Below, in pieces: positions 1 through 62,204 of a stretch of DNA of 64,000 bases. Made by a program: the position numbers and the translations under genes. Position 1 is the stretch's first letter, and every line of letters starts with the position of its first letter. The DNA is from Macrostomum lignano (taxonomy: Eukaryota). The stretch is from positions 565,819-629,818 of the forward strand of contig NIVC01000303.1 in the NCBI GenBank assembly GCA_002269645.1, in the 5' to 3' direction. The notes below the pieces were generated by a model. The model did not search any database and was not told the origin of the DNA. It saw nothing but the letters and a program-made list of their open reading frames with translations.

Positions 1-60
1 TCTTGCTTTCTAAAAAAGTACTGCTCCATCTATGTAGATAACTAAAGAAGATACACCGGG

Positions 61-762
61 AGAGTGAGAATGAAATACACAGGGGGAGGGTGAGATACAT
101 GGGGGGAGAGTGAGATACAAATGGGAGAGTGAGATACACAGAGGGATAGAGTGAGATACACAGGGGGACAGAGTGAGATACACAGGAGGGAGAGTGAGAT
201 ACACAGAAGGACAGAGTGAGATACACAGAGAGACAGAGTGAGATACACAGAGGGAGAGTGAGATACACAGGGGAGATACACAGAGGGACAGAGTGAGATA
301 CACAGGAGGAAGAGTGAGATACACAGGAGGAAGAGTGAGATACACAGGAGGGAGAGTGAGATACACAGGAGGGGGAGTGAGATACACAGGAGGAAGAGAG
401 AGATACACAGAGGGGGGGTGAGATACACAAATGGGAAAGTGAGATACACCATGCTTGGGCGCAACCTAGGGATTCACCCGGCCGTTTCTATTGGCAACAC
501 ACACACGTAAGTCGCTATTGGACAGAATAGTAGTCACGTGACTGCTCTCAGCCAATGGGGACTTACATGTGTGTGTTGCCAATAGAAACGGCCGAGTGAT
601 TCCCAAGGTTGCGCATGTATGAGATACACAGGGGAGAGTGAGATACATGGGGAGAGTGAGATACACAGGGGAGAGTGAGATACACGGGGAGAGTGAGATA
701 CACAGGGGAGAGTGAGATACACAGGGGAGAGTGAGATACACAGGGGAGAGTGAGATACACAA
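61..762. repeat. Minisatellite (~21-24 bp, GAGAGTGAGATACACAGGG...) in DDB1 intron 10, interrupted by a MITE
   Basis: Tandem degenerate units visible directly. Confidence 0.95.
450..621. mobile_element. 172-bp palindromic hAT-type MITE (copy A)
   Basis: 8-bp TSD AGATACAC (442-449, 622-629), CAT...ATG termini, long internal inverted repeat centred on GTCACGTGAC; second copy at 42246-42417. Confidence 0.85.
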
Positions 763-788
763 GGGTAGATAAAGCAGACACACCGCAC

Positions 789-1154
789 CTTTCTCGTGAG
801 TCCCTGAGCGACAGTCTCGAGTTTGTCGCGTCCCAAATCGAGCGCAGCTTCCAACAGATCGCCATCAATGAAATCCTTAGCCGGTTCGGTCCTGTGCTCA
901 GTCTCAAACGATCGATATTTGGCGTGCTCAACTCCGCCAACTCCGACTATAAGACTGGCTAGCCGGCGTTGCAATTCGTTGAGAAACTCAAACAGAGGCG
1001 GCGGTAGCTGACAGATGAGACCAACTGCGCCGCTTTGAGTAGCAAATAGAATTGGAGTGCTCACAGTGACCAGGCGTTCGCCTAATTGGCTCATTACTAA
1101 TGAGCCGTGTTGGAAAGTGTTAACTGTGTCGCCTAGGTGGTACCAGGCGTTCTC
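789..1154 (-). CDS. DDB1: DDB1 coding exon 10
   Basis: [21 protein letters not shown]...FIDGDLLE...GLTRK, donor GTGCGG. Confidence 0.94.
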
Positions 1155-4100
1155 CTGCGCGTGTGACGGGGTGCATTGCTTCTAAGAGATGATAATTGAT
1201 CGGTAGTGATCAGTTGTAAGAACTTTAGTGTTGCTTCAAAACAGCTACATAGCAGAGTAACACAAAGGATAGGTGAGAGTGACACACAAATTGATAAGGG
1301 TAGTGTAAGCAGAAAAGCCAGCGAAACACGCAGATCTAAGAGAGTGACCCACGAAAATCTAAGAGACATGCAGATCTAAGAAAGTGACCCATACATAAGA
1401 GACTGGTACACGTAAGTGAGTGATGCACACGGATCTAGAAGTGGCACACATAAGAGAGTGACGCACATAAGAGAGTGACACTCGCAGGTCTAAGGTAGTG
1501 ACACACATAAGAGAGTGACACACAGAGTGACACACACGGATCTAAGAGTGACAAACATAAGAGTGACGCACACGGATCCAAGAGTGACACGCATAAGAGA
1601 GTGACGCACACGGATCTAAGAGTGACACGCATAAGAGAGTGACGCACACGGATCTGAGAGTGACACGCATAAGAGAGTGACACAGAGTGACGCACAGGGA
1701 TCTAAGAGTGACACGCATAAGAGAGTGACGCACAGGGATCTAAGAGTGACACGCATAAGAGAGTGACGCACACGGATCTAAGAGTGACACGCATAAGAGA
1801 GTGATGCACACGGATCTGAGAGTGACACGCATAAGAGAGTGATGCACACGGATCTAAGAGTGACACGCATAAGAGAGTGATGCACACGGATCTGAGAGTG
1901 ACATGCATAAGAGAGTGACACAGAGTGACGCACACGGATCTAAGAGTGACACGCATAAGAGAGTGATGCTCACGGATCTAAGAGTGACACGCATAAGAGA
2001 GTGACGCACACGGATCCAAGAGTGACACGCATAAGAGAGTGACGCACACGGATCTGAGAGTGACATGCATAAGAGAGTGACACAGAGTGACGCACACGGA
2101 TCTAAGAGTGACACGCATAAGAGAGTGATGCTCACGGATCTGAGAGTGACACGCATAAGAGAGTGATGCTCACGGATCTGAGAGTGACACGCATAAGAGA
2201 GTGACGCACACGGATCTAAGAGTGACACGCATAAGAGAGTGACGCACACGGATCTAAGAGTGACACGCATAAGAGAGTGATCCACACGGATCTGAGAGTG
2301 ACACGCATAAGAGAGTGATGCACACGGATCTAAGAGTGACACGCATAAGAGAGTGATGCTCACGGATCTAAGAGTGACACGCATAAGAGAGTGATGCACA
2401 CGGATCTGAGAGTGACACGCATAAGAGAGTGACGCACACGGATCTAAGAGTGACACGCATAAGAGAGTGACGCACACGGATCTGAGAGTGACATGCATAA
2501 GAGAGTGACACAGAGTGACGCACACGGATCTAAGAGTGACACGCATAAGAGAGTGATGCTCACGGATCTGAGAGTGACACGCATAAGAGAGTGACGCACA
2601 CGGATCTGAGAGTGACACGCATAAGAGAGTGATGCACACGGATCTAAGAGTGACACGCATAAGAGAGTGATGCACACGGATCTAAGAGTGACACGCATAA
2701 GAGAGTGATGCACACGGATCTAAGAGTGACACGCATAAGAGAGTGATGCTCACGGATCTAAGAGTGACACGCATAAGAGAGTGATGCACACGGATCTGAG
2801 AGTGACACGCATAAGAGAGTGACGCACACGGATCTAAGAGTGACACGCATAAGAGAGTGACGCACACGGATCTGAGAGTGACATGCATAAGAGAGTGACA
2901 CAGAGTGACGCACACGGATCTAAGAGTGACACGCATAAGAGAGTGATGCTCACGGATCTGAGAGTGACACGCATAAGAGAGTGACGCACACGGATCTGAG
3001 AGTGACACGCATAAGAGAGTGATGCACACGGATCTAAGAGTGACACGCATAAGAGAGTGATGCACACGGATCTAAGAGTGACACGCATAAGAGAGTGATG
3101 CACACGGATCTGAGAGTGACACGCATAAGAGAGTGACGCGCACGGATCTAAGAGTGACACGCATAAGAGAGTGATGCACACGGATCTGAGAGTGACACGC
3201 ATAAGAGAGTGACGCACACGGATCTAAGAGTGACACACACAAGAGAGTGACACAAACCTGCAGCCTTGGCCTCTCCTCCCCGCCAGAATTCTCCGACTCT
3301 CTTGAGCACACAAACAGATTGCCGCAATTCTCTGCACCCAGAAACGCATCATCGTCGATAATTTCAATGGCTAACATCCAGTTAGGCGCGTGATCTCTGA
3401 CGATCTCTTCCAGACTGGTTTCAACCGGCTTGTACAGCAGCAGGGACATGCTGCGTAGCAGGTCGCCAACCAGAGCGAAGTCGCCTTTAGTTTTGAGGTA
3501 CAAAGCGATGATGTTGTTAAAGTGGGAACATTCCAATCGGAGTTCCCGTTCGTTTTCGCTCCATTCGAATAGGCGGACGGAGCTGTTAACGCAGACCAGA
3601 AGGCGCTGGTTGAAGCAGCACATTGAGTAGGGCGCGCCTCGGATCTCCTTCTCAGCTACCTGGCAGGCGGGAAATTGGGGAGCTACTAGTGAGCTACAGC
3701 TGGCAATGATGGGGAATCTTTGCTTCAGAAAGAAGATTCTCTCAAATGGGGAATCCCAGCTTGGGGGAGATTCTATCAGATTAGGGAAATCCCAGCTTGG
3801 GGGAGATTCTATCAGATGAAGAAAATCCCAGCTTAGGGGAGATTCTATCAGATGGGAAAATCCCAGCTTGAGGGGGAGATTCTATCAGATGAGGGAAATC
3901 CCAGCTTGAGGGGGATTCTATCAGATGAGGGAAATCCCAGCTTGCGGGAGATTCTATCAGATGAGGGAAATCCCAGCTTGTGGGAGATTCTATCAGATGA
4001 GGGAAATCCCAGCTTGTGGGAGATTCTATCAGATGAGGGAAATCCCAGCTTGTGGAAGATTCTATCAGATGAGGGAAATCCCAGCTTGAGGGGGAGATTC

Positions 4101-7100
4101 TATCAGATGAGGGAAATCCCAGCTTGAAGGGGAGATTCTCTCAAATAGGGAAATCTGGAAAAATACGCTCGTAGTACACAAAAAGTTTAGGTAAATAGCA
4201 GAATCATTACCTTAGTAAGATAAGGACTATCCGCGGTATACTGCAGCATTAGCAACCTCCCAGCAGACGGTTCAGACTCATTAGGCCGTATATAGCAGGT
4301 GCCAACTACGAAATAGGTGGCGCAATCGGTGCCAAACTGGCCAGAGGTGATACTAGTGGCAGTCTCAACGCAGCTCGGATTCGATGGAAACTGCATCGAG
4401 CAGAGCGGTTGCAAAGAATTCTGTTCTAGCACTACTACAGAGGTCACTTCGAGTTCTTCATCAACTTCGGCTGATGAGGCTGCGGCGACGGCGGCAGCAG
4501 CGGCGGCGGAAGCTACGGTGGCAGCGGCGCCGACCATCCCGGATGCGTGCGCATGATGCCGCTTGCCGGCAGCTGTGGCGGCTCCATCCGGGGTGAGCTG
4601 GATCGGGGCAGTGACAGAGACAGAGGTTCTGGCCGGAGCGTAGCCGCCTTCGTGGCGCAGATCAACCCGGGAGGTCACCACGGCAAGGGTGCCGGACTCG
4701 GGTTGGTGAGCCACTTTTCTAGCGGATTCGCCTAGCGGTACAGTGCGAATGTGCAGCTTCTGCATGTCGTCTATGGTGCCGAATAGTAACTGGCTGTTGG
4801 TTACTAGGCAGATGCACTGTTGCGGCTGCTGGGCATCGATAGATGCTGCTGATAGTAGTATAGGGCACACGTAATTCACTTGGCGGGTGTTCACGTGGGA
4901 GATTACCTGGTTGAAGGATTTGATCATTTCTGTTTTTTATGATAGGGATATACTCAGGTGAGTAATAGGGATATACTCAGGTGAGTGATTAGGATATACT
5001 CAGGTGGGTGATAGGGATAGACTCAGGTGAGTGATAGGGATAGACTCAGGTGAGTGATAGGGATAGACTCAGGTGAGTGATAGGGATAGACTCAGGTGAG
5101 TGATAGGGATATACTCAGGTGAGTGATAGGGATAGACTCAGGTGAGTGATAGGGATAGACTCAGGTGAGTGATAGGGATAGACTCAGGTGGGTGATAGGG
5201 ATATACTCAGGTGAGTGATAGGGATATACTCAGGTGAGTGATAGGGATATACTCAGGTGAGTGATAGGGATAGACTCAGGTGAGTGATAGGGATATACTC
5301 AGGTGGGTGATAGGGATAGACTCAGGTGAGTGATAGGGATAGACTCAGGTGAGTGATAGGGATAGACTCAGGTGGGTGATAGGGATATACTCAGGTGAGT
5401 GATAGGGATATACTCAGGTGAGTGATAGGGATAGACTCAGGTGAGTGATAGGGATATACTAGGTGATGAGTGGGGATACCCTCAAGTGATGGGTGAGAAT
5501 ATTTTCAGCTGAGAAGTGGAAACATTCACAGATGATGGGTGGGGATAGGGGATATACTCAGGTGATGGGTGGGGATAAATAGTAAAAACTCACCAGCTTC
5601 CCCGAAACGCAATGAGCAATGGCTGGTCTGTCAGTGCAGACAAACAAACTCTGAGAAGGCAGCCAGCACAATCCCATAGGTTGAGTACCAATAATCACGT
5701 GCTTCCTATTAACCAGAGCGGGCCCGGGTACAACGGTAAAGTACACCATTGTGCCGTCCCCGATGCCAACGAATAGATAAACACCGCAGGGCATTGTGGC
5801 CAGGACTATGGAGCGCGGAATGATCTGCAACAGAGATTGGAGTGGAATGAATAGAGATAAATCTAATAGGTCAACATGACACACCTGCATATAGATCTAA
5901 TGGGTCAACATACTGCATAGATCTAATGGGTCATCATACTGCAGATAGATCTAATGGATCAACATACTGCAGATGGATCTAATGGGTCATCATACTGCAG
6001 ATGGATCTAATGGGTCAACATACTGCAGATAGATCTAATGGGTCAACATACTGCAGATAGATCTAATGGGTCATCATACTGCAGATGGATCTAATGGGTC
6101 ATCATACTGCAGATAGATCTAATGGGTCATCATACTGCAGATAGATCTAATGGGTCAACATACTACAGATAGATCTAATGGGTCATCATACTGCAGATAG
6201 ATCTAATGGGTCAACATACTGCAGATAGATCTAATGGGTCATCATACTGCATAGATCTAATGGGTCATCATACTACAGATAGATCTAATGGGTCATCATA
6301 CTGCAGATAGATCTAATGGGTCAACATACTGCAGATAAATCTAAGCAGGTCAAAAACACAAACCTGAACGCCAAGCGGTTCCACGCAGACCTCCTCAAGA
6401 TTTCTCAGCCGCAGCAGTCGCACAGAGATCTCAACCCACAGGCCAACAGCCACAATACCGCCACCATCATCAAATCCGTCTGGCAATGGCGTGGCATCGA
6501 TGCAGGCCACTTCGTTTGGCAGCTCGCGCTCGGCTAGCACAGTCAAAGTGCCTTCGCCAATCGCTAGACAGGTGAGCTGTCGGCCAATAGCTATTAGCAG
6601 GTGACGCTGTCCGGCTCCGCAAACGGACACTGTCCGACCAGATGGTGGCAGCCATTCAGCTAATCGACGCTTGCCAGTGGAATCCAATAGGCGAGCGGAC
6701 TGCGGCGTGACCTGAGATTTTAAAGAAATTTAATTTTGGTTAATTTATTCATAATGCGCTACTAATAAAATATTTAATAAGTAGTGTAGTGTGGAAATAA
6801 ACTGCAAAAATATTTGAAAATTCTATACTTGCTACTTAAACAAAGGTAAGTAGTACAGTAAAGGACAGAGATAAAATTTGCGAAGTTCTATTTTGTGTAT
6901 GAGACTACTAAGGGATTCCGTATGTGTTGATTTTGGAGGTGGGGTGGGTGTCAACCCTCCTCGCCTCTCATTGGCTGGCGCCCCGATCACTAGGTGATCG
7001 ATACCCGTATCGATATCGGCGCTCGGCGCGCGCGCGCCGCAGGCGCGTGGCGCCAAGCGCCGTCCAGCCGCAGGCGACCCTCCCGAGCCACCGGCGACCC

Positions 7101-10100
7101 TCCCCAGCCGCAGGCGCACCTACCGATATTAGATCCCAATAAATCAATCAGATCCCAAATCAATCAGATCCCAAATCAATCAGATCCCAAGCGCACCCTC
7201 CCGAGCCGCAGGCGCCCATGCAGCAGGCGCCCCTCCCCGCCGCACGCGCCCTCCCCCGACATGTATGCCGCAGGCGCCCTCCCCGTCTCAGGCGCCCCTC
7301 CCGATATGTATGCGCACTCTCCCTATATGTACACCGATATGTATGCAGCAGGCGCCCGAGTGTACACTCCCCCGATATGTGTGTACACCGATATGTAGTC
7401 ATCGATACGGGCCTCTTCCCCTCTCTCACCTACATCTCAACTAGCGAAATCGAACCCAGGTCGCGCCCATACTAGGACACTACACGGTTGTGGGGTATAG
7501 GGAGCGAGAAGTTTCAACCCTAACGCTGACGCAGCCCTGTACAGTGAGAGTGTACGGGCAGAGAGGGGTGGCGCGGACAGAGAACCAGCCACTAGGTTGT
7601 TATACTGTTGAAGCATAGGGAGCGAGAAGTTTTAACCCCGATGCTGACGCAGCCCTGTACACTGAGCGTGTACGGGCAGAGGGTGGGTGGAAAGAGATGT
7701 GAATAACACAGCCTGCTGCAGGAGCCGGATAGAGAGGCGCATGCTAGGACAGAGAGGTAGTGTGAGTCACACACACCCCACAGAGAAAGCCATACAGAGG
7801 ATAGAGAGCTCCCTCCCCAGTTGCAGGGGACAGAGAGGCAGGCAGGGTATGCAGGGGCATGCGAACCGTCAAGGGGCCACGCGAGGATAGAGTGGAGGAG
7901 CAGAGATGTGTTTGGACAGAGAGCCAGCCACGTGTGCGTAGTGTGAGGGAACAGAAACATATGGAGCAGGAGGGAGATAGGAAGCAAACGCGCAGGGTAA
8001 GGGAGCCACACAGGGCGGTACAGTGAGACACGGGCAGGGGTGGAGCCGTGCGTGGACAGAGCTGAACGGCACGGTCAGCTGCAGGAATAGGATGATAGAG
8101 AGGCGCGGAGGGGGACAGAGAGCAGTGTGCAGGGGTAGGCAGCCACGCAGGCTGGGGAACAGAGAGGCGCGTGTCAGCCAGTTGCAGCCCGGGACAGAGA
8201 AGTATGAAGGGGGGCCTGGGACAGAGTTCCGAGCAAGGCACAGAGGTAGGGTCCTGTAGCTATGTATAGGCAGGGAGCCACGCGAGGGCAGGACAGGGGA
8301 GCAGACATGCAAGTTGCATGCAAGGCCAGAGAGGTGTGCGCGGAGGGAGACAGAGAGCAGTGTGTAGGGGTAGGTAACAGCAAACTTTAGTAGCGGCGCG
8401 TGCGGGGACGGAGAAACCAGTCAGAGCATACAGAGACGTTACAGAGAGGTACACAAGCAGAGACCAAAGCGAGCAGAGCACATGTGTAGGGACAGAGACG
8501 TGAGGGAGAATCGACCAAAACACGCTATGTATTTTCAAAAGTTGGTTTTAGTGCAACATGTTTAATAGTGGGTAGTATAATAGTATGTACATAGTAGGTA
8601 TAATAGTAGTAATAATAGTAAGCATATTAGCCCAAAAGGTAGACTAAAACAGGCTAAACTGTGTGTACGCATCCTCATCACCCCACAAGCCCCCTCTCCC
8701 GCCAGACTCACTCTACCAAACCCTCCTGTATTGCTGCATGAAGGAAAATATAGTGTAAAAATACAGATCTTAACCGTCAGACCGCTGAAATCAGGGCACA
8801 CTAGAGGGGGTTTCGGGGTCTGCATGCTCTATGTAAGCTGCTTGAGGAGGTTCCAAGGGCGTTGTGAGGGTTTCCATTATGTTTTGAAAAAAACTAGAGG
8901 CTTAAATACAACGTTTTATTCAAAAGTAGGTTATTTTAATGAAATAGCTGACACAATCATTGTCGAGAGTAGAAATTTTTATAAGAAACCAGGCATTTTA
9001 GCAAAAATAAACCTTCAAACCACATAAAATTGAATAAAAAGCAGACATTTTCAATTATAAACCGCAAGTATTTTAATAGAAAAGTAAGCAAACAAGGCAC
9101 AAAACCAGCAAATTTTACCTTTTTATTTTAATGTTACTGATAAGGTAGAGAGTAGAAACTTGTGAGCTGTACGGAGTTAGAAAGTATTAACCATTATGTA
9201 TCGTATGAATTATTAGTTCAGTACCAGCCATTGGTCAAGCGAGCATTTATGAAGTTATTACGAGTGATGAAGGGATAGAGAGCTATATACAGGAAGACAG
9301 TATCCTTCTAAACCACCACGAACAGATTGCTAATAGAGATAAGCTTTGTCTGTGTGCAGTATGAGTAAGCGAAGGCGGGGCAAATACTTTTCCACATGCC
9401 GGACAGAACAGTATTGTGCTAGGATTTCTCTCGAAATCGCGGTACGTTACTAGTTTTTATCACACCATCCAGATGCGTCAACTAGTCAGCAGTAGTCATT
9501 TATATGTTATTAGAACTTACAAACCCAGGTCAAGTAAATATTACAAAGAGTATATTACGTACACACACCAACTCCGAATACCAAGCCATACTAGTCTACT
9601 TGCAGTGCTCCTGGAGGGAAGGGACGGCGGGGTGTACATCCGGCAGGGTGGGCGTCCAGCGAGTGTACATCTGACAGGATGGGTGTTCAGCAAGTGTACA
9701 TCTGACAGGGTGGGCGTTCAGCAAGTGTACCTTCAGCGTCGAGTAGGTGTACACCCGTCAGTGGGAACTCAGCCCCTCCCACCAATGTCGTGTGCATGCG
9801 GTTAGTCAGTATAGTGGTGGGGTAGACGGTGCAGGAAGGAAACCCAGATGCTGACGCTGCCCTGTACAGCGAGCAACCAGCCCTCCTGTAGCAGGAGGGG
9901 GACAGAGAGTGCGTGGAGGCAGTAGGAGATAGAGGACGCTACCCGGCATGTCGCAGCACGCGGCGCGGGACAGAGAGGCAGTGTGTAAGTCACCCCCACA
10001 GGGAGAGCTGCCCTGGCAGGAGGCGCGGGACAGAGAGGCGGTGAATCACACCCCACGGAGAGAGCCGTACAGCGAGCTTCCCCACCCGAGTCCGGTAAAT

Positions 10101-11508
10101 ATTACAGAGTATTACGTGCACACGCCAGCCCTGAATACCAAGCCATACTAGTCTACCTGCAGTGCTCCCAGAGGGAAGGGATGGTCAGGAGTTACACACC
10201 AAGAATGCATTCATACAAAGAGTACACAACTCGAGCCCAGACACCAAGTCACAGTCTACTTACAGTAGAGATGGTAGATTAATAGCAAGATTATATTACA
10301 ATTAGACCTCCCTAGCACATGAGGAGTGAAATTCAATAATAATTGAATTCAATAATAATACAACATTTAGACGTAGTAATTTAATTACAAAATACCACTA
10401 ACACTGAGCCAACGAATTGTAGGTTACAAAGGAGTTGCCACTCATATGGAAAGCCAGTATAATGCAGGTGTATATTATTAAAACATAGACAAAAACGATG
10501 CAGACGTATATACACACTATTGATTTTGTACATGTACATTTCGGCATATTACCACACATCGCAGGCACATATTATATATCGGGGGATAGGTTAAAATACA
10601 CACATCGTAGATGTAGAAGCAGACACAATGCAGGAAAATTATGATACGAGTGTACATATTAGTGCGTAAAAGTATCATATTATGACACCCTGTAGCACAT
10701 ATTGACATAATGCAGGGGAAAATATTGACAGAAATAGTACACAATTGTAGAGGTAACAACCCGCCAACTAGTAAGGACATCCAGCACTTGTTCAGGTTTT
10801 TATTATTTCGAGACGAGTGTCATGCCCCCGCAAGAGATCTTATCAGAAATTTGTTGAACTCCACTGCAACTCTCCCCAGAGCCTCCAAATGTGAGTTTTT
10901 AACCCAGGGTCGAGTACAAAGGACCCGCCCACTCTTAACCCCAAGGGGTGATCGTAGCGGAGACCAAGTACAGTGCGGACGGAGAGGGGTAACAGAAAGC
11001 GCTGCATCAGACCGCAGGGCTGCATTCCTCCCCGAGGTAGGCGCGTCAGCTCCCACTCCTCATTTAACCATCAAGTAAACTAAAGAAGTCAAGCAGAAAG
11101 CCTTACAATCACCCGCAACCAGCACAAGTAAGAGTACTTTCCACTAGAGAGCCATAGTGCAAGATTCGCGAGCCAAGTTGAAGAAGCACACCAAATTACA
11201 CTAAAGACATATGTATTAAAAAGCATACCGGCACCTCTACAAAAACACAGTATGTACCGATTAAAGTTGCTTTTGGTGCAGTGTATTTAATAAAAAGCAG
11301 GTACCTAACACAAAAGTAGGCATCAATGCAGTGCACGGACTAAACTGTATTTACAAACGCAGGGCAACGAACTACACACAATGTAGCGCATAGACATAAT
11401 TGTACGCATAAATGTACGCAATTTCCGGTATATAGGACCACATGTACGCAAATGTACACAATGTACACAAACAAACACACACACACACAAACACACACAC
11501 ACAACACA

Positions 11509-11543
<35 letters not shown>

Positions 11544-11634
11544 CCTCAGGCGTATTCACAGCAAGAGCTTCCTGCCGATGGCGCCATCGCCTGCGGCGAT
11601 CGGCGCTGCAGGATGCGCTCTGCGGGATGCGCCT

Positions 11635-11685
<51 letters not shown>

Positions 11686-14600
11686 TGTTTGTGTGTGTGT
11701 GTTTGTGTTTGTGTGTGTGTGTTTGTTTGTGTACATTGTGTACATTTGCGTACATGTGGTCCTATATACCGGAAATTGCGTACATTTATGCGTACAATTA
11801 TGTCTATGCGCTACATTGTGTGTAGTTCGTTGCCCTGCGTTTGTAAATACAGTTTAGTCCGTGCACTGCATTGATGCCTACTTTTGTGTTAGGTACCTGC
11901 TTTTTATTAAATACACTGCACCAAAAGCAACTTTAATCGGTACATACTGTGTTTTTGTAGAGGTGCCGGTATGCTTTTTAATACATATGTCTTTAGTGTA
12001 ATTTGGTGTGCTTCTTCAACTTGGCTCGCGAATCTTGCACTATGGCTCTCTAGTGGAAAGTACTCTTACTTGTGCTGGTTGCGGGTGATTGTAAGGCTTT
12101 CTGCTTGACTTCTTTAGTTTACTTGATGGTTAAATGAGGAGTGGGAGCTGACGCGCCTACCTCGGGGAGGAATGCAGCCCTGCGGTCTGATGCAGCGCTT
12201 TCTGTTACCCCTCTCCGTCCGCACTGTACTTGGTCTCCGCTACGATCACCCCTTGGGGTTAAGAGTGGGCGGGTCCTTTGTACTCGACCCTGGGTTAAAA
12301 ACTCACATTTGGAGGCTCTGGGGAGAGTTGCAGTGGAGTTCAACAAATTTCTGATAAGATCTCTTGCGGGGGCATGACACTCGTCTCGAAATAATAAAAA
12401 CCTGAACAAGTGCTGGATGTCCTTACTAGTTGGCGGGTTGTTACCTCTACAATTGTGTACTATTTCTGTCAATATTTTCCCCTGCATTATGTCAATATGT
12501 GCTACAGGGTGTCATAATATGATACTTTTACGCACTAATATGTACACTCGTATCATAATTTTCCTGCATTGTGTCTGCTTCTACATCTACGATGTGTGTA
12601 TTTTAACCTATCCCCCGATATATAATATGTGCCTGCGATGTGTGGTAATATGCCGAAATGTACATGTACAAAATCAATAGTGTGTATATACGTCTGCATC
12701 GTTTTTGTCTATGTTTTAATAATATACACCTGCATTATACTGGCTTTCCATATGAGTGGCAACTCCTTTGTAACCTACAATTCGTTGGCTCAGTGTTAGT
12801 GGTATTTTGTAATTAAATTACTACGTCTAAATGTTGTATTATTATTGAATTCAATTATTATTGAATTTCACTCCTCATGTGCTAGGGAGGTCTAATTGTA
12901 ATATAATCTTGCTATTAATCTACCATCTCTACTGTAAGTAGACTGTGACTTGGTGTCTGGGCTCGAGTTGTGTACTCTTTGTATGAATGCATTCTTGGTG
13001 TGTAACTCCTGACCATCCCTTCCCTCTGGGAGCACTGCAGGTAGACTAGTATGGCTTGGTATTCAGGGCTGGCGTGTGCACGTAATACTCTGTAATATTT
13101 ACCGGACTCGGGTGGGGAAGCTCGCTGTACGGCTCTCTCCGTGGGGTGTGATTCACCGCCTCTCTGTCCCGCGCCTCCTGCCAGGGCAGCTCTCCCTGTG
13201 GGGGTGACTTACACACTGCCTCTCTGTCCCGCGCCGCGTGCTGCGACATGCCGGGTAGCGTCCTCTATCTCCTACTGCCTCCACGCACTCTCTGTCCCCC
13301 TCCTGCTACAGGAGGGCTGGTTGCTCGCTGTACAGGGCAGCGTCAGCATCTGGGTTTCCTTCCTGCACCGTCTACCCCACCACTATACTGACTAACCGCA
13401 TGCACACGACATTGGTGGGAGGGGCTGAGTTCCCACTGACGGGTGTACACCTACTCGACGCTGAAGGTACACTTGCTGAACGCCCACCCTGTCAGATGTA
13501 CACTTGCTGAACACCCATCCTGTCAGATGTACACTCGCTGGACGCCCACCCTGCCGGATGTACACCCCGCCGTCCCTTCCCTCCAGGAGCACTGCAAGTA
13601 GACTAGTATGGCTTGGTATTCGGAGTTGGTGTGTGTACGTAATATACTCTTTGTAATATTTACTTGACCTGGGTTTGTAAGTTCTAATAACATATAAATG
13701 ACTACTGCTGACTAGTTGACGCATCTGGATGGTGTGATAAAAACTAGTAACGTACCGCGATTTCGAGAGAAATCCTAGCACAATACTGTTCTGTCCGGCA
13801 TGTGGAAAAGTATTTGCCCCGCCTTCGCTTACTCATACTGCACACAGACAAAGCTTATCTCTATTAGCAATCTGTTCGTGGTGGTTTAGAAGGATACTGT
13901 CTTCCTGTATATAGCTCTCTATCCCTTCATCACTCGTAATAACTTCATAAATGCTCGCTTGACCAATGGCTGGTACTGAACTAATAATTCATACGATACA
14001 TAATGGTTAATACTTTCTAACTCCGTACAGCTCACAAGTTTCTACTCTCTACCTTATCAGTAACATTAAAATAAAAAGGTAAAATTTGCTGGTTTTGTGC
14101 CTTGTTTGCTTACTTTTCTATTAAAATACTTGCGGTTTATAATTGAAAATGTCTGCTTTTTATTCAATTTTATGTGGTTTGAAGGTTTATTTTTGCTAAA
14201 ATGCCTGGTTTCTTATAAAAATTTCTACTCTCGACAATGATTGTGTCAGCTATTTCATTAAAATAACCTACTTTTGAATAAAACGTTGTATTTAAGCCTC
14301 TAGTTTTTTTCAAAACATAATGGAAACCCTCACAACGCCCTTGGAACCTCCTCAAGCAGCTTACATAGAGCATGCAGACCCCGAAACCCCTCTAGTGTGC
14401 CCTGATTTCAGCGGTCTGACGGTTAAGATCTGTATTTTTACACTATATTTTCCTTCATGCAGCAATACAGGAGGGTTTGGTAGAGTGAGTCTGGCGGGAG
14501 AGGGGGCTTGTGGGGTGATGAGGATGCGTACACACAGTTTAGCCTGTTTTAGTCTACCTTTTGGGCTAATATGCTTACTATTATTACTACTATTATACCT

Positions 14601-17600
14601 ACTATGTACATACTATTATACTACCCACTATTAAACATGTTGCACTAAAACCAACTTTTGAAAATACATAGCGTGTTTTGGTCGATTCTCCCTCACGTCT
14701 CTGTCCCTACACATGTGCTCTGCTCGCTTTGGTCTCTGCTTGTGTACCTCTCTGTAACGTCTCTGTATGCTCTGACTGGTTTCTCCGTCCCCGCACGCGC
14801 CGCTACTAAAGTTTGCTGTTACCTACCCCTACACACTGCTCTCTGTCTCCCTCCGCGCACACCTCTCTGGCCTTGCATGCAACTTGCATGTCTGCTCCCC
14901 TGTCCTGCCCTCGCGTGGCTCCCTGCCTATACATAGCTACAGGACCCTACCTCTGTGCCTTGCTCGGAACTCTGTCCCAGGCCCCCCTTCATACTTCTCT
15001 GTCCCGGGCTGCAACTGGCTGACACGCGCCTCTCTGTTCCCCAGCCTGCGTGGCTGCCTACCCCTGCACACTGCTCTCTGTCCCCCTCCGCGCCTCTCTA
15101 TCATCCTATTCCTGCAGCTGACCGTGCCGTTCAGCTCTGTCCACGCACGGCTCCACCCCTGCCCGTGTCTCACTGTACCGCCCTGTGTGGCTCCCTTACC
15201 CTGCGCGTTTGCTTCCTATCTCCCTCCTGCTCCATATGTTTCTGTTCCCTCACACTACGCACACGTGGCTGGCTCTCTGTCCAAACACATCTCTGCTCCT
15301 CCACTCTATCCTCGCGTGGCCCCTTGACGGTTCGCATGCCCCTGCATACCCTGCCTGCCTCTCTGTCCCCTGCAACTGGGGAGGGAGCTCTCTATCCTCT
15401 GTATGGCTTTCTCTGTGGGGTGTGTGTGACTCACACTACCTCTCTGTCCTAGCATGCGCCTCTCTATCCGGCTCCTGCAGCAGGCTGTGTTATTCACATC
15501 TCTTTCCACCCACCCTCTGCCCGTACACGCTCAGTGTACAGGGCTGCGTCAGCATCGGGGTTAAAACTTCTCGCTCCCTATGCTTCAACAGTATAACAAC
15601 CTAGTGGCTGGTTCTCTGTCCGCGCCACCCCTCTCTGCCCGTACACTCTCACTGTACAGGGCTGCGTCAGCGTTAGGGTTGAAACTTCTCGCTCCCTATA
15701 CCCCACAACCGTGTAGTGTCCTAGTATGGGCGCGACCTGGGTTCGATTTCGCTAGTTGAGATGTAGGTGAGAGAGGGGAAGAGGCCCGTATCGATGACTA
15801 CATATCGGTGTACACACATATCGGGGGAGTGTACACTCGGGCGCCTGCTGCATACATATCGGTGTACATATAGGGAGAGTGCGCATACATATCGGGAGGG
15901 GCGCCTGAGACGGGGAGGGCGCCTGCGGCATACATGTCGGGGAGGGCGCGTGCGGCGGGGAGGGGCGCCTGCTGCATGGGCGCCTGCGGCTCGGGAGGGT
16001 GCGCTTGGGATCTGATTGATTTGGGATCTGATTGATTTGGGATCTGATTGATTTATTGGGATCTAATATCGGTAGGTGCGCCTGCGGCTGGGGAGGGTCG
16101 CCGGTGGCTCGGGAGGGTCGCCTGCGGCTGGACGGCGCTTGGCGCCACGCGCCTGCGGCGCGCGCGCGCCGAGCGCCGATATCGATACGGGTATCGATCA
16201 CCTAGTGATCGGGGCGCCAGCCAATGAGAGGCGAGGAGGGTTGACACCCACCCCACCTCCAAAATCAACACATACGGAATCCCTTAGTAGTTATGAGGAC
16301 TAGTACAAGAGCCCCCTTAAGGGGAATGTACTTGATCTCGTACTATATAGTTTTGTAAGTGGCTATTAACTGCAAGCAAAATTTTATGAAAATTAAAAAA
16401 ATCAAGTAGACAAAAGCAATCTGTTTGATTCTGTACACTCTTTGTACGAATTCGTGTGTGAGTTGAAAGCTCAGTGAAATGGCCATAACGGCTCCCCGTT
16501 GGAAAAGTTATGCACCTGCAGAGGCATAAAAGGTGAACGAGGTGCACAAAAGAGGCACTTTGGTGGTCTATTTCGTGTGTGTTTTGGAAATGCACCTGAG
16601 TGCACCTTTTATGCCTAAATGTCACCAATATTTTTGAAAAGAGGCATGAAAGGTGTAAAATAGGTGAAGTGGTCAGGCAGTAGGTGAATTCTCAATTTTG
16701 ATTGGTTGCGGCGGTAGGGGCAGTAAAGGTGTATAAGGGGCACTGGAGGTGCGCAAAAGGTGAAGAGTAGGCTCACAAGTGAGGCACATCAGGTGCACCA
16801 GAGGTGCTGAAGGGGCGCAGAAAGCGCGTGAAAGGTGAATTAGAGGTGCATAAGGTGTACATATGCGGCGTAAATATGTATACAGGTGCATTTCCAAAAC
16901 ACGCTCGAAATTATAGACCCCTAAAGTGCCTCTTCTGTGCACCTCGCTCACCTTTCATGCCTATGCACGAATATTAACGCATTAAGAATTCGTAACAAAA
17001 AATTAACTGAGAGTTACATATATGCTAATCGCTGTTATCCCCTTCCTAATCCTGACAAACCACGAAAAAACATTTCCAAAACTGATCACCTTTCGTGCCT
17101 CCAGTGCACACTGTACACCTTTTCTGCACCTCCACCGCAGCACACCTTTTTTCACCTTTCACTCCTCCAATGCCCCCAATTCCTATTTTATTCACCTTTT
17201 GTGCCTCAACGCACACTGTGCACCTTTTATGCACCTAACTCACCTATGACACCTGTGCCCCTACCGCCTATTTCGTGCCTTAAATTCACCTTCCGCCCCT
17301 GCAGAGGCACTCAGGTGAACAAAAGGTGCACAAGTGGCATAAAAAAGGCATAGGAGAGGCCAAAGTGAGGCAGAAGGTGCAAAACTCTTCACCTTTTATG
17401 CCTACTTTAAAAACTCAAAATCCAACGGGCTCGCCTCTTAATCTGAGGCGGTGCCCTAAACGCCCCCTCCCCCAGCAACTAAGAAGATTAATGATTCTCA
17501 TTACCTGAACAATCTGTCCGCCAAGAACATTCTGGCACAGGTAGGTGCGCTCGGCAGTTTCAAATGCGGGCATTGGCACCTCTTCAATCTCCATAGCCGG

Positions 17601-20600
17601 ATCGCAGGGCGAACAGCTCATTAATAGAGTCTTGGTCTGATTCTGGAAGGTGATAATGATGAAGTTATCGAAGCTGCTGCCAGCTGTTCGCAGATTCCAG
17701 ACACCTTTGATGCCAGCCAAATCGATGTTAACCATCTCGTTGATGCCGACTCCGCTGCGAATGATTCTCAGACTGCCGTCCTTGAATGCGCCCGAACATG
17801 TGACTAGCTGTCCCTGGCCCAGGTTGTCAATGTCAACAACTGCCATGTCAACCACTGGAGCAATATTGACAAAGCTTTCCAATACGCTGACAAAATTGCC
17901 CGAACTATCGGCCTCTACTAGTAGGCGAATCAATTGACTGTCGCCAAAACGGGAGCCAATGAAAACAACATTGTTGTCAAGGTAACTGATTGTCTCCGGT
18001 ATAGAAATTTCGCCGAGTAGTTCAACCTGGAAATGTTTTTACATTGAAGTCAGTTGTAGTAATTAGATGCCGAGGCAATTATTTCATAGTTACTCCCGCC
18101 GTTTACCCAGCAGGAATAGACTTGATCCTGCTAGTTAGAACAAGTTCTAACAAAACAATAAAACTGAGCTAAAATGTAATTTTAAACACCAACAGACCTT
18201 CATATCTTTGACTCGGTCGCCTTCCCTCTCTAGAAACAGCATGAACAGCCGGCCGGCCATGTCGCCCAATAGGAATCGATTGCAATCTAATCGATCAAAG
18301 GCCAGCATTGGCGAAGTTCGAATCACTGGCGGAGCGATGGTTTTTAATGAGCCGTCCTTTGAACGGATTGTCACGGTCTCTTGGCCTACTATTAGTAGGC
18401 CCGGATGCGGCATTGGCAGCGGAATTAGCATAGATGCCTGTCAATGGAAATGAGTAATTTAACAATTAGTTGAGTTTCTTAAGAAGCACAAGAGCCAATA
18501 ATCGGGTAAGTCGGACCAGTTTCTTAGAAAGCGATTTCATAGAATGGCGAGGTGATTGGTTTCTTACAAATATTTGATAAATGATTTCTTAGAATGACAA
18601 CGTAGTTTATTTCTTAGAATTGCTTGAATATTTATTTAAATGGCTGGGTATTTTTTGAATTGCTAGGTAAGTGATGCATTAGAATTGCTGGGTGAGTGAT
18701 TTCTTAGAATCTCCGGGTAAGTAATTCCTTAGAATCTCCAGTTAAGTGATTCCTTAGAATCTCCAGTTAAGTGATTCCTTAGAATCTCCAGGTAAGTGAT
18801 TCCTTAAAATCTCCAGGTAAGTTATTTCTTAGAATCGCTGGGAAAGTGATTTCTTAGAATTTGTGGGTAAGTGATTTCTTAGAATCGCTGGGTATGTGAT
18901 TTCTTAGAACTTGTGGGTAAGTGATTTCTTAGAATTTCTGGGTAAGTGATTTCTTAGAATTTCTGGGTAAGTGATTCCTTAGCATTGCGGGCTAAGTGGT
19001 TTTCTAAAATAAGAATTGCTTTGTAAAAGCGATTTCTCGAATGAACATTAGAAATCGATGTGGCTAATTAATAGATAATCAAATATGCAAGTTTTTGTAC
19101 CTGCGCTTGAATAGAATCGATTTTCCAAGGCCCCGGCGCCAGATCTCTGGTGTCGCAATTGATTTCCACAGTTTTCAGATGACGCCCCACAGAATCCTGA
19201 GTTATATAGGCAATCGTAGGATTCACTCCGTCGATGAAAGTCATATCGACCAAGTCGATCTCTTCGATTCGAACATTGAAAGCTTTCAACGTGTCCGATC
19301 CGGCCTCCGGATTGTAGGGTTTCTGAACAAAGGACACTGGAATAACCTTCAGTAGGCCTTCGTATAGTTGCAGAGCCACTACACGACCGCGAGGATCCAC
19401 AATGCCCAGCGGGCCGTTCTCAGATTGTCTACCAATTCGTTCGTGCAGATTGCCAGAGGCCAGGGTCACCACCTTCAGGCAGTGGCTGTTGTCAGCTAAA
19501 TAATCACCAGCAGCCTCAGTAGCTTCCATCGCTAACGAGCCAGCGTTGTCTACCTGGCATTCCAGTATCATGGCATCTTTCTTCTGTGTCAGCAGGAAAA
19601 TCAAGTCGGTGCCAGATGTTCGACCCTGCGCGAAAGAAATAAAAAGTATTTCAAAGAAAGATCTAGGAGTATTGCAGACTGTTCTTTTGGAACATAATAC
19701 TTAGACACGATGTGGCAAATTTACAGTGCTACTTGGCATCCAAATAAGGGTTGTAGTCTAGTGGTTAGAGCGTCGAAGTCATGACTGAAGGGCTGGGGGT
19801 TCGATTTTCGACCCACTCGGAGCAATTTGTGTTCCTGAGCAAGACACTGAACTCTGAATTGCTTCATTTCACCCAGCAGTAAAATGAGTACTCAGCATTA
19901 TTACCTTAATGGAGTAATTGAAGGTGTATGCAACCTTCAGATATGCTGCACAATAGCAGCAGCAGAGTTGTTGGTTGCACATTATGGCAGGTGTAAAAAT
20001 TATTACTATTATCAGCATCCTGGGGTCTAAATTCGTGACGCCAAGTTGAAAAAGTTCAAAGTCAAATAAAATACATACTAAGCTACTCTGACCCACAGAA
20101 GTCTGCAGACTCTATACTTACAGATTACTTGAATCTGACAGATGATATATGAATTGAAATTCCAAAAATTATTAAATGGCATCTAGCTTGGATAAAACAG
20201 GGTACGATTTGGCGTCTGGAGTTGACATGCTATGACACAGAAACCCAGCTTACAATACTAGATAATAAAATAGATACCTGAGGCTGAAATCCAAGCAGTA
20301 CACTGATCTTGCCATATATAGAGATCTCCTTAATAGTCTTGACACCACTGGAGCTGACAACATGTAACTCGAGAGTGTTGTGCTTGGCAACTAGCAAATT
20401 TCTATAATTATTGCCAGTAAAATGACCTGTTGTTGAGTTGATGTTATGATTAATTATTATTAAGTATAAGTGATATATATAACTTATCAAAAGCAATATA
20501 AACTTGAAAAAGATGATATCAAAACAAAAAATAGGCCTGAAAAATGTTACTTTTACAAACTAGGAAATAAAAAAATGCTTAAAAGCCCACTAAAATAAAA

Positions 20601-23600: not shown

Positions 23601-26600
23601 AACATAGAAAAGAAGATCGAATCAACAAGACAGGCCAAGATAGGCGCGGCCTACTAGGCCTAATGGTTGCCGCTTTACTGTATAATTGAAGAGTAAAAGG
23701 CCTAGTAAACGTCTAATTTAATTTAATTGTAAATAAGTACAATTACGAGTATTGTAACTGTAAGTAATACGAGCAAAGCCAAAGGCACAATATAAAATTT
23801 AATAATATGACTACAATAATATACATTTAGTAAAACCCTTATTAGAAAAGAAACAGATATATGCTAGGCTATAGGCCTAGGCCCTATCAGAACGGGGAAA
23901 TTTCAAAGATCTGACAAATTATATGATGGTAGGACGGAGAACTATACAAGGCGGTGAAGAGTCGCCTACTCCCAGATATATTAATAGACAAATGCAGAGA
24001 GGCGCCCTTAATACATGTAGATTGATGGACAGAAGCAGTTAGAGAGGCGCCCTTCATACATGTAGATTGATGGACAGAAGCAGTTAGAGAGGCGCCCTTC
24101 ATACATGTAGATTGATGGACAGAAACAGTTAGAGAGGCGCCCTTCATACATGTAGATTGATGGACAGAAGCAGTTAGAGAGCGCCCTTGATCCAAGTAGA
24201 TTGATAGACAGAAGCAGTTAGAGAGGCGCCATTCATACATGTAGATTGATAGACAGAAGCAGTTAGAGAGGCGCCCTTCATACATGTAGATTGATAGACA
24301 GAAGCAGTTAGAGAGGCGCCCTTCATACATGTAGATTGATAGACAGAAGCAGTTAGAGAGGCGCCCTTCATACATGTAGATTGATAGACAGAAGCAGTTA
24401 GAGAGGCGCCCTTCATACATGTAGATTGATGGAAAGAATTCGCAGTTAGAGAGGCGCCCTTCATACAAGTAGATTGATGGACAGAATTCGCAGTTAGAGA
24501 GGCGCCATTCATACATGTAGATTGATGGACAGAAGCAGTTAGAGAGGCGCCCTTCATACATGTAGATTGATGGACAGAAGCAGTTAGAGAGGCGCCCTTC
24601 ATACATGTAGATTGATAGACAGAAGCAGTTAGAGAGGCGCCCTTCATACATGTAGATTGATAGACAGAAGCAGTTAGAGAGGCGCCATTCATACATGTAG
24701 ATTGATAGACAGAAGCAGTTAGAGAGGCGCCCTTCATACAAGTAGATTGATGGACAGAATTCGCAGTTAGAGAGGCGCCATTCATACATGTAGATTGATG
24801 GACAGAATTCGCAGTTAGAGAGGCGCCCTTCATACATGTAGATTGATGGACAGAAGCAGTTAGAGAGGCGCCCTTCATACATGTAGATTGATGCAGGACA
24901 GAAGCAGTTAGAGAGGCGCCCTTCATACAAGTAGATTGATGGACAGAAGCAGTTAGAGAGGCGCCCTTCATACATGTAGATTGATGGACGGAAGCAGTTA
25001 GAGAGGCGCCCTTCATACATGTAGATTGATGGACGGAAGCAGTTAGAGAGGCGCCCTTCATACATGTAGATTGATGGACAGAAGCAGTTAGAGAGGCGCC
25101 CTTCATACATGTAGATTGATGGACAGAAGCAGTTAGAGAGGCACCCTTCATACATGTAGATTGATGGACAGAAGCAGTTAGAGAGGCGCCCTTCATACAT
25201 GTAGATTGATGGACAGAAGCAGTTAGAGAGGCGCCCTTCATACATGTAGATTGATGGACAGAAGCAGTTAGAGAGGCGCCCTTCATACATGTAGATTGAT
25301 AGACAGAAGCAGTTAGAGAGGCGCCCTTGATCCAAGTAGATTGATAGACAGAAGCAGTTAGAGAGGCGCCCTTGATCCAAGTAGATTGATAGACAGAAGC
25401 AGTTAGAGAGGCGCCCTTCATACAAGTAGATTGATGGACAGAATTCGCAGTTAGAGAGGCGCCCTTCATACATGTAGATTGATGGACAGAAGCAGTTAGA
25501 GAGGCGCCCTTGATCCAAGTAGATTGATAGACAGAAGCAGTTAGAGAGGCGCCCTTGATCCAAGTAGATTGATAGACAGAAGCAGTTAGAGAGGCGCCCT
25601 TCATACATGTAGATTGATGGACAGAAGCAGTTAGAGAGGCGCCCTTGATCCAAGTAGATTGATAGACAGAAGCAGTTAGAGAGGCGCCCTTGATCCAAGT
25701 AGATTGATAGACAGAAGCAGTTAGAGAGGCGCCCTTCATACAAGTAGATTGATGGACAGAATTCGCAGTTAGAGAGGCGCCCTTCATACATGTAGATTGA
25801 TGGACAGAAGCAGTTAGAGAGGCGCCCTTCATACATGTAGATTGATAGACAGAAGCAGTTAGAGAGGCGCCATTCATACATGTAGATTGATAGACAGAAG
25901 CAGTTAGAGAGGCGCCCTTCATACATGTAGATTGATGGACAGATGCAGTTAGAGAGGCGCCCTTCATACATGTAGATTGATGGACAGAAGCAGTTAGAGA
26001 GGCGCCCTTGATCCAAGTAGATTGATAGACAGAAGCAGTTAGAGAGGCGCCCTTGATCCAAGTAGATTGATAGACAGAAGCAGTTAGAGAGGCACCCTTG
26101 ATCCAAGTAGATTGATAGACAGAAGCAGTTAGAGAGGCGCCCTTGATCCAAGTAGATTGATAGACAGAAGCAGTTAGAGAGGCACCCTTGATCCAAGTAG
26201 ATTGATAGACAGAAGCAGTTAGAGAGGCACCCTTGATCCAAGTAGATTGATAGACAGAAGCAGTTAGAGAGGCGCCCTTGATCCAAGTAGATTGTTAGAC
26301 AGAAGCAGTTAGAGAGGCACCCTTGATCCAAGTAGATTGATAGACAGACTCCCTGTAAGCCTGTTTTTTGAAAATTGAATGGAAAATAGGTTTGATATTA
26401 TTGTAAAAGTTTAATGTACTTTACCTTAAAAGCTGGTTGTCAATTGATAGGCGTTACTCAAGAGCTTTACTACAGCTAGATATATTTCCAAAATGGCCTA
26501 AATGATAACAAGACTTGGATAAATACTCAGGGCCTAGCCTTTTTAGAGCTAGCCTATGCCTAGTTTTAAAGCTGGCCTGTAGTGAGGAAATACTAGGCCT

Positions 26601-44703: not shown

Positions 44704-45144
44704 TAGCCGTCTCCGTGTACCCACATGCCCCACAATTGCAGGAGTTTGTTCCTCATCCCAGCCCGTCGGGCAGTCTCATGCACGAGATCCAACGCCTGGT
44801 TGCTACTCCAGGCAGTGGATCCGACATCGCTGCAGCTGGGGCTGCTGAATCTTCAAATCAGCAGCCAGCGCAGCAGCATCACCAACAGCAGCATCAGCAG
44901 CAGTTATTAGCTCAGCATCATCGATATTATTCCGGCGATTGGAAAGCGCCTAGAGCTGTCAATCATGTAGAGTGCGACAGCTGCGGCGCTGACGGCGACC
45001 TGCTGTGCTGCGACCGCTGCCCGGCCAGCTTCCACCCGGAGTGTCTCAATCCGCCACTAGAGAAAGAGGCTGCCCCCACTCATGATTGGTAAATTTGTCT
45101 GTCTCTACCAGTTAGATAGATAGATGGATACATATAGATAGATG

Positions 45145-51493: not shown

Positions 51494-52182
51494 TTTTATC
51501 CAGAGACCGAATAAACTGTGGAGTGATTGGTTTTGTGGAGGCTGGTCTATCGTTCGAGTTTTTCTTATTATGGAACGGGTACGGATAGTCTTAACCAGCA
51601 CTACTGTGTGAGGGCGTCAGAGGCCAATCAAAGTAATATAGATGACTTAGAGGAGGGAGTGGCACTGAGCGCTATACACTGATACTAATATAGCTCAAGT
51701 GAACTATCTAGGTTACATAGTATCGTTGCATCTGTGTAACAATTGTTGGTTGATATTTTTGCGCAGGTTTTTTTACCTATTTTTTATGTTTTGTCTTTCC
51801 GTAGTAAACAATTAGTAATTTAATTGTAGCTTTTTAACATACCCTGTAATGCGCTGCATGTTGAGGAAATCATTAATAACATATTTCATAGCTTGTTTAC
51901 AAAATTTATATTGAGTGACAAACTGGTATTTGACTAAATAAGCTTTGATTATTTATCTTTATCTGATATGAATCTCCGTTCAAACAATCAGTCACAAAGA
52001 TTAAAATAGACAGGTAATTTAAGCCAATATTTTTAGGTTTTTATTGTTCCAATTATGTTTTACACGACATGCCGTGTACCATACTCGTACATATACTTTT
52101 TACTACCAGTTACCAAGAATTCAATTCCCTTCTATAAGCCTAGTCTTCTCTTATCTTCTTTACAGATAATTCCAATCTAAGC

Positions 52183-53892: not shown

Positions 53893-54984
53893 GCTTTATT
53901 TCATGGTCCGGTGACCATAGACTGATGGTCCGGTGTTTATATTCTTATCAAGAGCAGTCTGTCTCACTGTTTTACGTGTACATATATTTATCAGATAAAG
54001 ATTAGTACCTTAATTCCTATTTCTAAAAACTGAATTTTGCATTTAGCGTAGAATATCGTCATATTTGCCAGAAATGAAAATTCTGCATGTTATTTTTTAA
54101 TAATGATTTAGATCTAAAAGTAAAAAAAAATTAATTACTATTCTGTGACTTCGGCTTTCAGTTTTGTTGGCGGTGAAAATAACCATAAAGGAAAATTGTC
54201 CTGTTTGACACTATACAATATCTTCATTTTTGCCAGTGACTTTAGAATGATTTTTATATATGGATTTACCAATTTCTAAAATTACAAGTTTAACAAAAAA
54301 TTACAATTCTAGGATAAATGGTAGCTACTAACAGCAGCTATAGGTCCACATTGTATGACTTCAAACTTAATGAAATAATAAGTGTCCCAGTAAAACAGCA
54401 GTCTCAAGTCTGCGCAATTCTAGGCGTGGTTGGAGACTTTCCGGAATGAGCTTAATGTAACGTCATGTCCCGGACATCTACAAAATTCTATGACCAAAGA
54501 ATGGCTGGATGACCAGGGAGTCATCGTTGCGAGAGTTGGTTACAGAGACCTTCCTGGCCTACCCGAAGTATTCTGCGACAACCACGACTCGCGACATATT
54601 CATAATGCTGAGACGCTGGGCCGTTTTTAAGAAAAAAAAATGTATAAGCAGATTATATAATCTAGCTATCTGTATTATTCATGTGCTCCGGAAAAGTGAA
54701 AAAAACTATATTTCAGGTTCCATTCTGATCTATTTCTATCAGGCATGGTATCTTTTGTTTTAATCAATAATTACTTTTAATCTTTCTTCAAACGGGTAAC
54801 AATTCTGCATTATAATTTTTTTTTATTTTACGATATATAGTTTCGTCTAAAATTACTTTTAACAGGTATATATTTTTGGCCGTGTCAAGCGCAACGCACA
54901 TGCATGTAATGCAGCCACTTGATGTTGCAGTCTTCAGCTAAGTTAAGGCATCGTGGAATGACCTCACGAGCTGCTTGCACACGG

Positions 54985-62151: not shown

Positions 62152-62204
62152 TGTTGGATTGGCTGTGAGGAGTTGAAATGTAGATGAAGTCAAAACTCAA
62201 CGTA

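Follow-up and report, generated by a model that had tools for sequence, protein, structure and literature searches.

The stretch of Macrostomum lignano DNA analysed here (64,000 nucleotides, positions 565,819 to 629,818 of contig NIVC01000303.1, assembly GCA_002269645.1; hereafter the window) contains, in an intron of a DDB1-type gene, a palindrome of 9,388 bp (6904-16291) that has a bulged GC-rich hairpin as its axis (Table 1). Outside the centre, the left and right arms differ by no substitution and by two 1-nt indels, both in short homopolymer runs (a C run and a G run), and perfect mirror symmetry stops at 11488/11709. The palindrome ends with ACTACT...AGTAGT, each 5' end being (ACT)2, and is flanked on both sides by the direct repeat TATGAG, a 6-bp target-site duplication observed for this one insertion. 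The element to which the hairpin belongs is a 9.4-kb mirror image that turns round at this hairpin; it is mobile, non-autonomous, multicopy in M. lignano and without recognisable gene. It amounts to an integrated head-to-head dimer that has the centre as its axis and whose two ends are open and identical. Blastn matched the arm nowhere else in the window; internally, the arm is a mosaic of modules, namely 72-75-nt duplications, a 31-nt triple repeat and GGACAGAGAG units (7497-7690, 9523-10184, 9632-9730).

Table 1. Features of the palindromic element and of its host intron, in coordinates of the window.
Feature	Position	Strand	Remarks
DDB1 intron harbouring the element	6712..17504	-	10.8 kb (about 1.4 kb without the element); GT/AG ends; flanking exons match DDB1-type beta-propeller
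Target-site duplication, left copy	6898..6903	+	TATGAG, 6 bp; flank contigs of runs X4 and X16 stop exactly at 6903
Left arm	6904..11487	+	begins 5'-ACTACT; without recognised gene (nothing in Pfam above cut-off, among named PHROGs or in Rfam at gathering score)
Subterminal GC-rich zone	7010..7360	+	bulged hairpin (GCA loop 7039-7041), five GCCGCAGGCG decamers, short tandem repeats
TGTACRCA cluster, left	11401..11469	+	five copies
Interrupted (CA)n tract	11465..11540	+	76 nt
Imperfect GC-rich hairpin core	11541..11636	.	68% GC; halves matching at 36/53 columns
Apex	11586..11600	-	6-bp stem, C(GCA)G triloop on minus strand; shared decamer 11588-11597
Interrupted (TG)n tract	11637..11732	+	96 nt
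TGTACRCA cluster, right	11728..11796	-	five copies, mirrored
Right arm	11710..16291	-	reverse complement of left arm except for two 1-nt indels; ends AGTAGT-3'
Target-site duplication, right copy	16292..16297	+	TATGAG

The two exons that flank the intron match consecutive parts of a DDB1-type propeller, and the upstream one is identical to a M. lignano protein up to the splice site, the named homologues being DDB1; an exact cluster look-up of three host proteins matched none (0/3). Among 24 public sequencing runs, all in the form of contigs, 20, from seven studies of one organism, contain 60-82% of the words of the arm; the assembly itself may derive from one of these. Four of these 20 runs (X3, X4, X12 and X16), all in the form of contigs, were compared with positions 6600-11640. 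In X12, a loose end at 6715 continues into the other exon, so the host intron is spliced, be it from the filled or from an empty allele. The contig ends at 6903 in X4 and X16 correspond to a fork in the word graph right after the duplication, of which the coexistence of a filled and an empty allele is the simplest reading. Depth in X12 extends along the arm, which says nothing on expression since DNA may be present in this run. Transcription of the filled allele, if it occurs, would give a DDB1 pre-mRNA with a near-perfect double-stranded hairpin of 4.6 kb; A>G/T>C places in X12 were not in excess over the DNA-like runs, in contigs, which cannot reveal editing. To the right of the palindrome, the same intron has a second, older-looking repeat module with many AGGTG/CACCT units (16320-17450) and inverted arms (16517-16609 and 16872-16967, 83-89% alike), possibly another foldback-like element.

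Of the 55 stop-to-stop frames of at least 50 aa in the arm, 30 were compared with Pfam and PHROGs (six arm frames being included also in a separate domain scan); no credible family was recognised in these 30, where only weak matches were obtained (E 0.02-0.09) and where no Rep/HUH, resolvase, capsid, protein-primed PolB or integrase was found. Nothing reached the gathering score in the Rfam scan, and the open reading frame at 10710-11078 had no usable Atlas match. Exact scans gave no match for a 26-mer of the core in viral_contigs or metagenome_contigs, nor for a 23-mer of the end in metagenome_contigs. A 16-mer of the end was present in seven viral loci, all of them unlike the element outside the pattern, which we attribute to chance. 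A Helitron-type 3' hairpin was also considered and dropped, since the element has inverted ends and a target duplication.

The anatomy of the centre is as the preliminary description had it: the apex ATCGCC-TGC-GGCGAT at 11586, the stems below it (GCGCC 11581/GGCGC 11602, TCCTGC 11570/GCAGGA 11608, GAGC 11565/GCTC 11617 and CAGGCG 11547/CGCCTG 11630) and the unequal CA and TG tracts were each found in place. The two halves of the core leave 17 of 53 columns unmatched. On the plus strand, the core (11541-11636) folds with -31.6 kcal/mol (ViennaRNA; z -4.0, equalled by one of 500 shuffles), whereas z becomes -9.9 when part of the tracts is included, a value that is inflated because CA/TG pairing contributes to it. 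Two mir-3149 matches over the CA/TG hairpin, both below the Rfam cut-off, were rejected as driven by the microsatellite.

The same description likened the repeats beside the hairpin to iterons. Five TGTACRCA copies are indeed present on the left (starting at 11401, 11413, 11443, 11453 and 11462) and mirrored on the right, and their clustering is not random: the window contains 16 matches against 2.97 expected, a number reached in none of 100 shuffles, and the largest cluster in 100 shuffles of the arm was a single copy. Nevertheless, TGTAC is enriched in the whole arm (10.7 per kb; the shuffled arm has 3.1 and the remainder of the window 1.1) and the copies are irregularly spaced (12, 30, 10 and 9), so that the five copies are not peculiar to the centre. 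The cluster is the densest patch of an arm-wide motif, and the term iteron describes a resemblance only.

We noticed, in turn, a motif that connects the apex with the outer ends. Read on the minus strand, the apex is ATCGCC-GCA-GGCGAT, and its decamer GCCGCAGGCG forms the C(GCA)G triloop. This decamer occurs 11 times in the 64 kb, always inside the element: five times in each subterminal zone (on the left at 7036, 7067, 7107, 7205 and 7267) and once at the apex. The copy at 7036 likewise forms the tip of a GC hairpin with bulges, and this tip, like that of the apex, runs into TGGCGCCA two or three bases further on. Any 10-mer with five copies in the arm was present in 8 of 2000 shuffles of the core, a figure uncorrected for the search, the motif having been spotted post hoc. 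Hairpins of the C-GNA-G type with a stem of at least 6 bp number three in the element and none in the 54,612 bp outside it; with a stem of at least 3 bp, there are 13 in the 9,388 bp of the element and 11 outside. That apex and outer ends have this triloop decamer in common disfavours a random fold-back point. A likeness of the whole core to the end region was also considered; it was equalled by 7 of 200 shuffles, but also by 16 of 174 GC-rich control windows, and whole-core homology is not claimed.

The contigs of the public runs reveal a multicopy family with variants. Relative to the flank bin, the median depth of the arm is 56 in X3, 37 in X4 and 12 in X16, the three DNA-like runs, as calculated from long near-identical arm contigs, leaving out the diverged records 7, 12, 16, 19, 24 and 32 and the subterminal record 10; that of the core bin is 17.5, 16.5 and 3.9, respectively. 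The ratio of core to arm is 0.31-0.45 in the raw data and 0.50-0.72 if the 52 skipped repeat letters that affect the core bin (positions 11460-11552 were skipped in the comparison) are assumed to be zero, 0.5 being predicted from one core per two arms. As the depth of the core is 4-18 times that of the flank in these three runs, the centre is probably common to other copies, or to much of the family; the core bin is multicopy at a likeness of at least 88%, as judged by depth, although the sequence of no second centre was seen. At low depth, all four runs contain a subfamily with about 88-90% identity over 11092-11458 (records 7, 16, 24 and 32), and its contigs extend 95-265 letters past 11458, toward the expected centre. 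In X3, X4 and X12, the first 350 bp (6938-7275) are covered several times as deeply as the inner arm, and variant joints are numerous there. X12 has a loose end before 6931, the last 27 letters of which start with ACCACTGAGG, in register with the first 27 of the element (starting with ACTACTAAGG); this one long contig weakly suggests a related end type. It may be this end region alone that further elements have in common with the present one, and the deep first 350 bp and the variant ends hint at related families, with no gene apparent. In a further variant, found in X3 and X4, arm position 10238 is joined to sequence like the subterminal CCGATATGTATG repeats, as in rearranged family members.

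Within the present copy, the two arms are closer to each other than the copies are among themselves. The comparison gave 130 rows of differences, of which 40 were inspected: two concern the flank, 24 the diverged subfamily and 14 arm sites at which the leading contigs have another letter. At all 14 sites both arms of this copy share the letter of the window, and at two positions (9567 and 10777) all the depth in the four runs corresponds to another letter, the two arms here again having that of the window. This points to arm-to-arm templating, with the caveats that contigs drop rare variants and that polishing can homogenise the arms.

As the best of the readings considered here, although with somewhat less than an even chance, we hypothesize that the palindrome is a non-autonomous Polinton-like snapback element, whose displaced strand would fold into a 4.7-kb hairpin with no need for a nick or a resolvase. 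In adenovirus-type replication, synthesis from an end displaces a 5'-ended strand. Here, proteins would be supplied by an unseen autonomous partner of the Polinton/Maverick type; synthesis would begin at an end, where (ACT)2 would suit protein priming with jump-back, and one strand would be displaced. Being self-complementary, this strand may fold into a duplex of 4.7 kb with the central hairpin as its closed end; the folding would restore a duplex end and with it the origin. Synthesis from the restored end could then round the hairpin and regenerate the dimer, which presumably alone offers an integrase two ends to insert. Pairing of the arms in the folded strand would keep them identical, while the centre and the microsatellite would escape, and the hairpin end would be a passive intermediate rather than a telomere that is nicked and resolved. 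We infer this whole mechanism from the palindrome, the identical ends, the 6-bp duplication, the insertion in an intron, the multicopy variants and the minority letters shared by both arms. Such a fold-and-copy route accounts for identical arms with a mismatched centre, and the ends and the duplication point to a mover of the integrase type. Polinton duplications are 6 bp long, 6-bp tri- or dinucleotide end repeats have been tied to jump-back priming (PMC8097293, PMC10045372), and the background on Polinton/Maverick integration fits a 6-bp duplication with repeated-trinucleotide ends (PMC10748475). Polintons/Mavericks also share with the element terminal inverted repeats and copy numbers in the low tens (PMC8097293, PMC10748475). 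They differ in that polymerase, integrase and capsid genes are not recognised in the element, in that its inverted repeat of 4.6 kb makes up almost the whole of it, compared with 46-1,447 bp in vertebrates (PMC8097293, PMC10748475), and in size, 9.4 kb against 13-25 kb.

Several observations speak against a Polinton-like origin. The ends 5'-(ACT)2//(AGT)2-3' have the reverse polarity of the commonest vertebrate Maverick ends, (AGT)2//(ACT)2, and match none of the three 5' end motif types, (AGT)2, (AG)3 and (AC)3A, in a list that covers vertebrates only (PMC8097293); the element is for these reasons not filed as a member of Polinton/Maverick. No mover, autonomous partner or free molecule was seen in the window or in the contig runs, literature searches found no Polinton record for Macrostomum, and neither term, Polinton or Maverick, occurs in the text of three supplementary files of PMC5730564. 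The minus strand of the core, which bears the GCA loop, is the weaker folder (-26.0, z -1.8, equalled by 19 of 500 shuffles; ViennaRNA), and beyond the apex motif the likeness of core and end is no better than in the GC-rich controls. Furthermore, contig depth is not copy number, the core-to-arm ratio of X12, a run whose flank bin includes an exon, is 0.84-1.33 instead of 0.5, no contig of the four runs crosses the centre into the second arm (11460-11552 being skipped), and polishing of the assembly could have made the arms look more alike.

A bolder reading pictures the element as a replicon that would live, in the germ line of an animal, as the satellite of a Polinton-like virus: a gene-less 4.7-kb molecule with a protein-primed open end and a selected hairpin end, with the C(GCA)G mini-hairpin at both, that would exist by turns as a free hairpin monomer and as an integrated palindromic dimer, its arms correcting each other. 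This reading we consider doubtful. A single molecule would then combine an end of the adenovirus type with one of the parvovirus type, and in its folded strand the single-strand intermediate proposed for Polintons would take a form of unusual stability that could be detected directly. Helper-dependent snapback replication has a precedent in adeno-associated virus (AAV), whose snapback subgenomes replicate with helper proteins and share with the element self-complementarity, the duplication of one end type and, as we would expect for the element, dependence on a helper and alternation of monomer hairpin and dimer (PMC8235507). The ends of AAV are, in contrast, hairpins nicked by Rep, whereas the element is chromosomal, with open transposon-like ends and a duplication, and no viral gene fragment was recognised in it. 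Long palindromic plasmids formed by intra-strand annealing are known from Streptomyces. At the terminal-protein-capped telomeres of this genus, clusters of small palindromes with GNA triloops lie near the ends of linear DNA, the loops being compact and possibly nuclease-resistant (PMC5449611); the parallel is an analogy only and no homology is claimed, since these telomeres are bacterial and carry the loops on the 3' overhang strand, not on the 5'-ended strand as in the element.

The dimer junctions of parvoviruses, poxviruses and asfarviruses consist, as here, of an incompletely paired hairpin between perfect arms, with short repeats nearby. On this likeness the preliminary description had based its proposal of a true hairpin telomere of a 4.7-kb linear replicon, whose junction would be nicked and resolved near the TGTACRCA repeats and whose dimer would integrate. 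The part concerning an integrated dimer is borne out by the head-to-head axis, the open identical ends and the 6-bp duplication, the 4.7-kb hairpin-closed molecule being a plausible intermediate. That the centre is not an accidental fold-back point is likewise favoured by its probable presence in other copies and by the decamer it shares with the outer ends, although its role as a functional resolution site is not. The idea of a parvovirus- or poxvirus-type site nicked at iterons finds no support: no Rep, HUH, resolvase or capsid family was found in the frames scanned, the TGTAC motif is arm-wide and irregularly spaced, no nick site or viral gene is apparent, a nick-free route suffices and none of the observations requires resolution. 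Poxvirus-type termini are, in addition, AT-rich, while the core has 68% GC. We therefore consider this telomere model improbable, even with an imperfect hairpin, a non-random repeat cluster alongside it and a multicopy centre in its favour; nothing shows that the hairpin is a cut-and-resolved viral telomere. Terminal palindromes have been proposed as hairpin primers in integrated virophages and Polinton-like viruses, but at the outer ends and not at the centre (preprint 10.64898/2026.07.28.741278). The comparison of centres among copies is a weak test of the matter, since descent by itself gives young copies a common centre, and flip and flop, where the arms are identical, come down to the orientation of the insert.

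Descent is also what a second alternative invokes. Long palindromic non-autonomous transposons are known, such as FB of Drosophila and LONGPAL of C. elegans, which likewise have long inverted arms, a short imperfect centre and no coding capacity, and all the features by which such foldback elements are defined (long inverted arms, modular internal repeats, absence of coding capacity, a duplication and multiple copies) are found here. The founder of a cut-and-paste transposon of this kind may have folded once, at an imperfect inverted repeat or through the CA/TG tracts, so that the centre would be inherited without a role and the arms alike by youth or gene conversion; we regard this as a strong rival, though a less likely one than the snapback reading. 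In agreement with this explanation, descent alone would give a shared centre, and the core taken as a whole has no significant likeness to the end region, whereas the subterminal decamer at the apex and the letters shared by both arms and absent from the family contigs argue against it. The duplications of FB and LONGPAL are of about 9 bp, and the 6-bp duplication and the ACTACT ends are unlike those families. IS3EU and GingerRoot do give 6-bp duplications, but their ends are TA..TA or TG..CA (PMC10045372), in contrast to AC..GT in the element. Priming at short imperfect inverted repeats yields, via hairpin-capped intermediates, inverted duplications that share the long arms, the short imperfect centre and the lack of coding capacity; the mismatches of the priming repeats were, however, corrected in yeast (PMC10622511), while here the centre remains heavily mismatched and its apex repeats a subterminal motif. 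It is very unlikely that the centre is instead a separate miniature palindromic element of 262 bp, inserted at the self-complementary TGTACA axis of a formerly perfect palindrome with duplication of TGTACA and stabilising the palindrome by breaking its symmetry: TGTACA does adjoin both tracts directly (11462-11467 and 11730-11735) and the CAGGCG motifs of the core halves face inward as at the ends of the large element, but mirror symmetry makes the second flanking hexamer inevitable, TGTACA is common in the arm (3.5 per kb), the mirroring is still perfect over some 20 bases at the outer edge of the tracts and, in the DNA-like runs, the core is no deeper than the arm, with no excess from solo copies. 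Hardly credible, finally, is an artefact of assembly or of fold-back reads, in spite of the missing spanning contig, of arm differences confined to indels in C and G runs and of the description of M. lignano as difficult for assembly (PMC5730564). Beyond the second arm, the sequence passes into unique host intron, with an exact 6-bp duplication, the DDB1 exons stand in order on both sides and are spliced, and the depth of the core is about half that of the arm in three runs.

Foldback elements that are long and non-coding are already known, as are snapback subgenomes of viruses. The combination of 4.6-kb arms, a 6-bp duplication, ACTACT ends and a centre that repeats the end motif seems to be undescribed: no account of the element was found in the literature, in searches to which Repbase and subscription papers were external, so that prior annotation is possible, and the portions used of PMC5730564, PMC8717057, PMC6431247 and PMC5499653 contain none. 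Near-perfect palindromes of kilobase size tend to be unstable; the present one has nevertheless multiplied into a family, and the intron in which it lies belongs to a conserved gene and is spliced. Should the Polinton-type snapback apply, a replication intermediate would be observable in a cultured animal, as a 4.7-kb hairpin with a blocked end is easily told from chromosomal DNA, and new mutations are predicted to appear in both arms simultaneously. If the palindrome is an ordinary foldback element, it would be an unusually large example with an incidental centre.

Elsewhere in the window, long minisatellite arrays with periods of 17-142 occupy host introns (1-6350, 18650-19002, 23996-36200 and 54989-57108), matching the high simple-repeat content reported for M. 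lignano (PMC5730564). Several diverged copies of an NHL-repeat (TRIM-like) gene, 70-96% alike and in both orientations, lie at 49831-62200, and exons of neighbouring host genes at 44715-45092 and 63199-63879 have PHD-finger and Rap-GAP matches.

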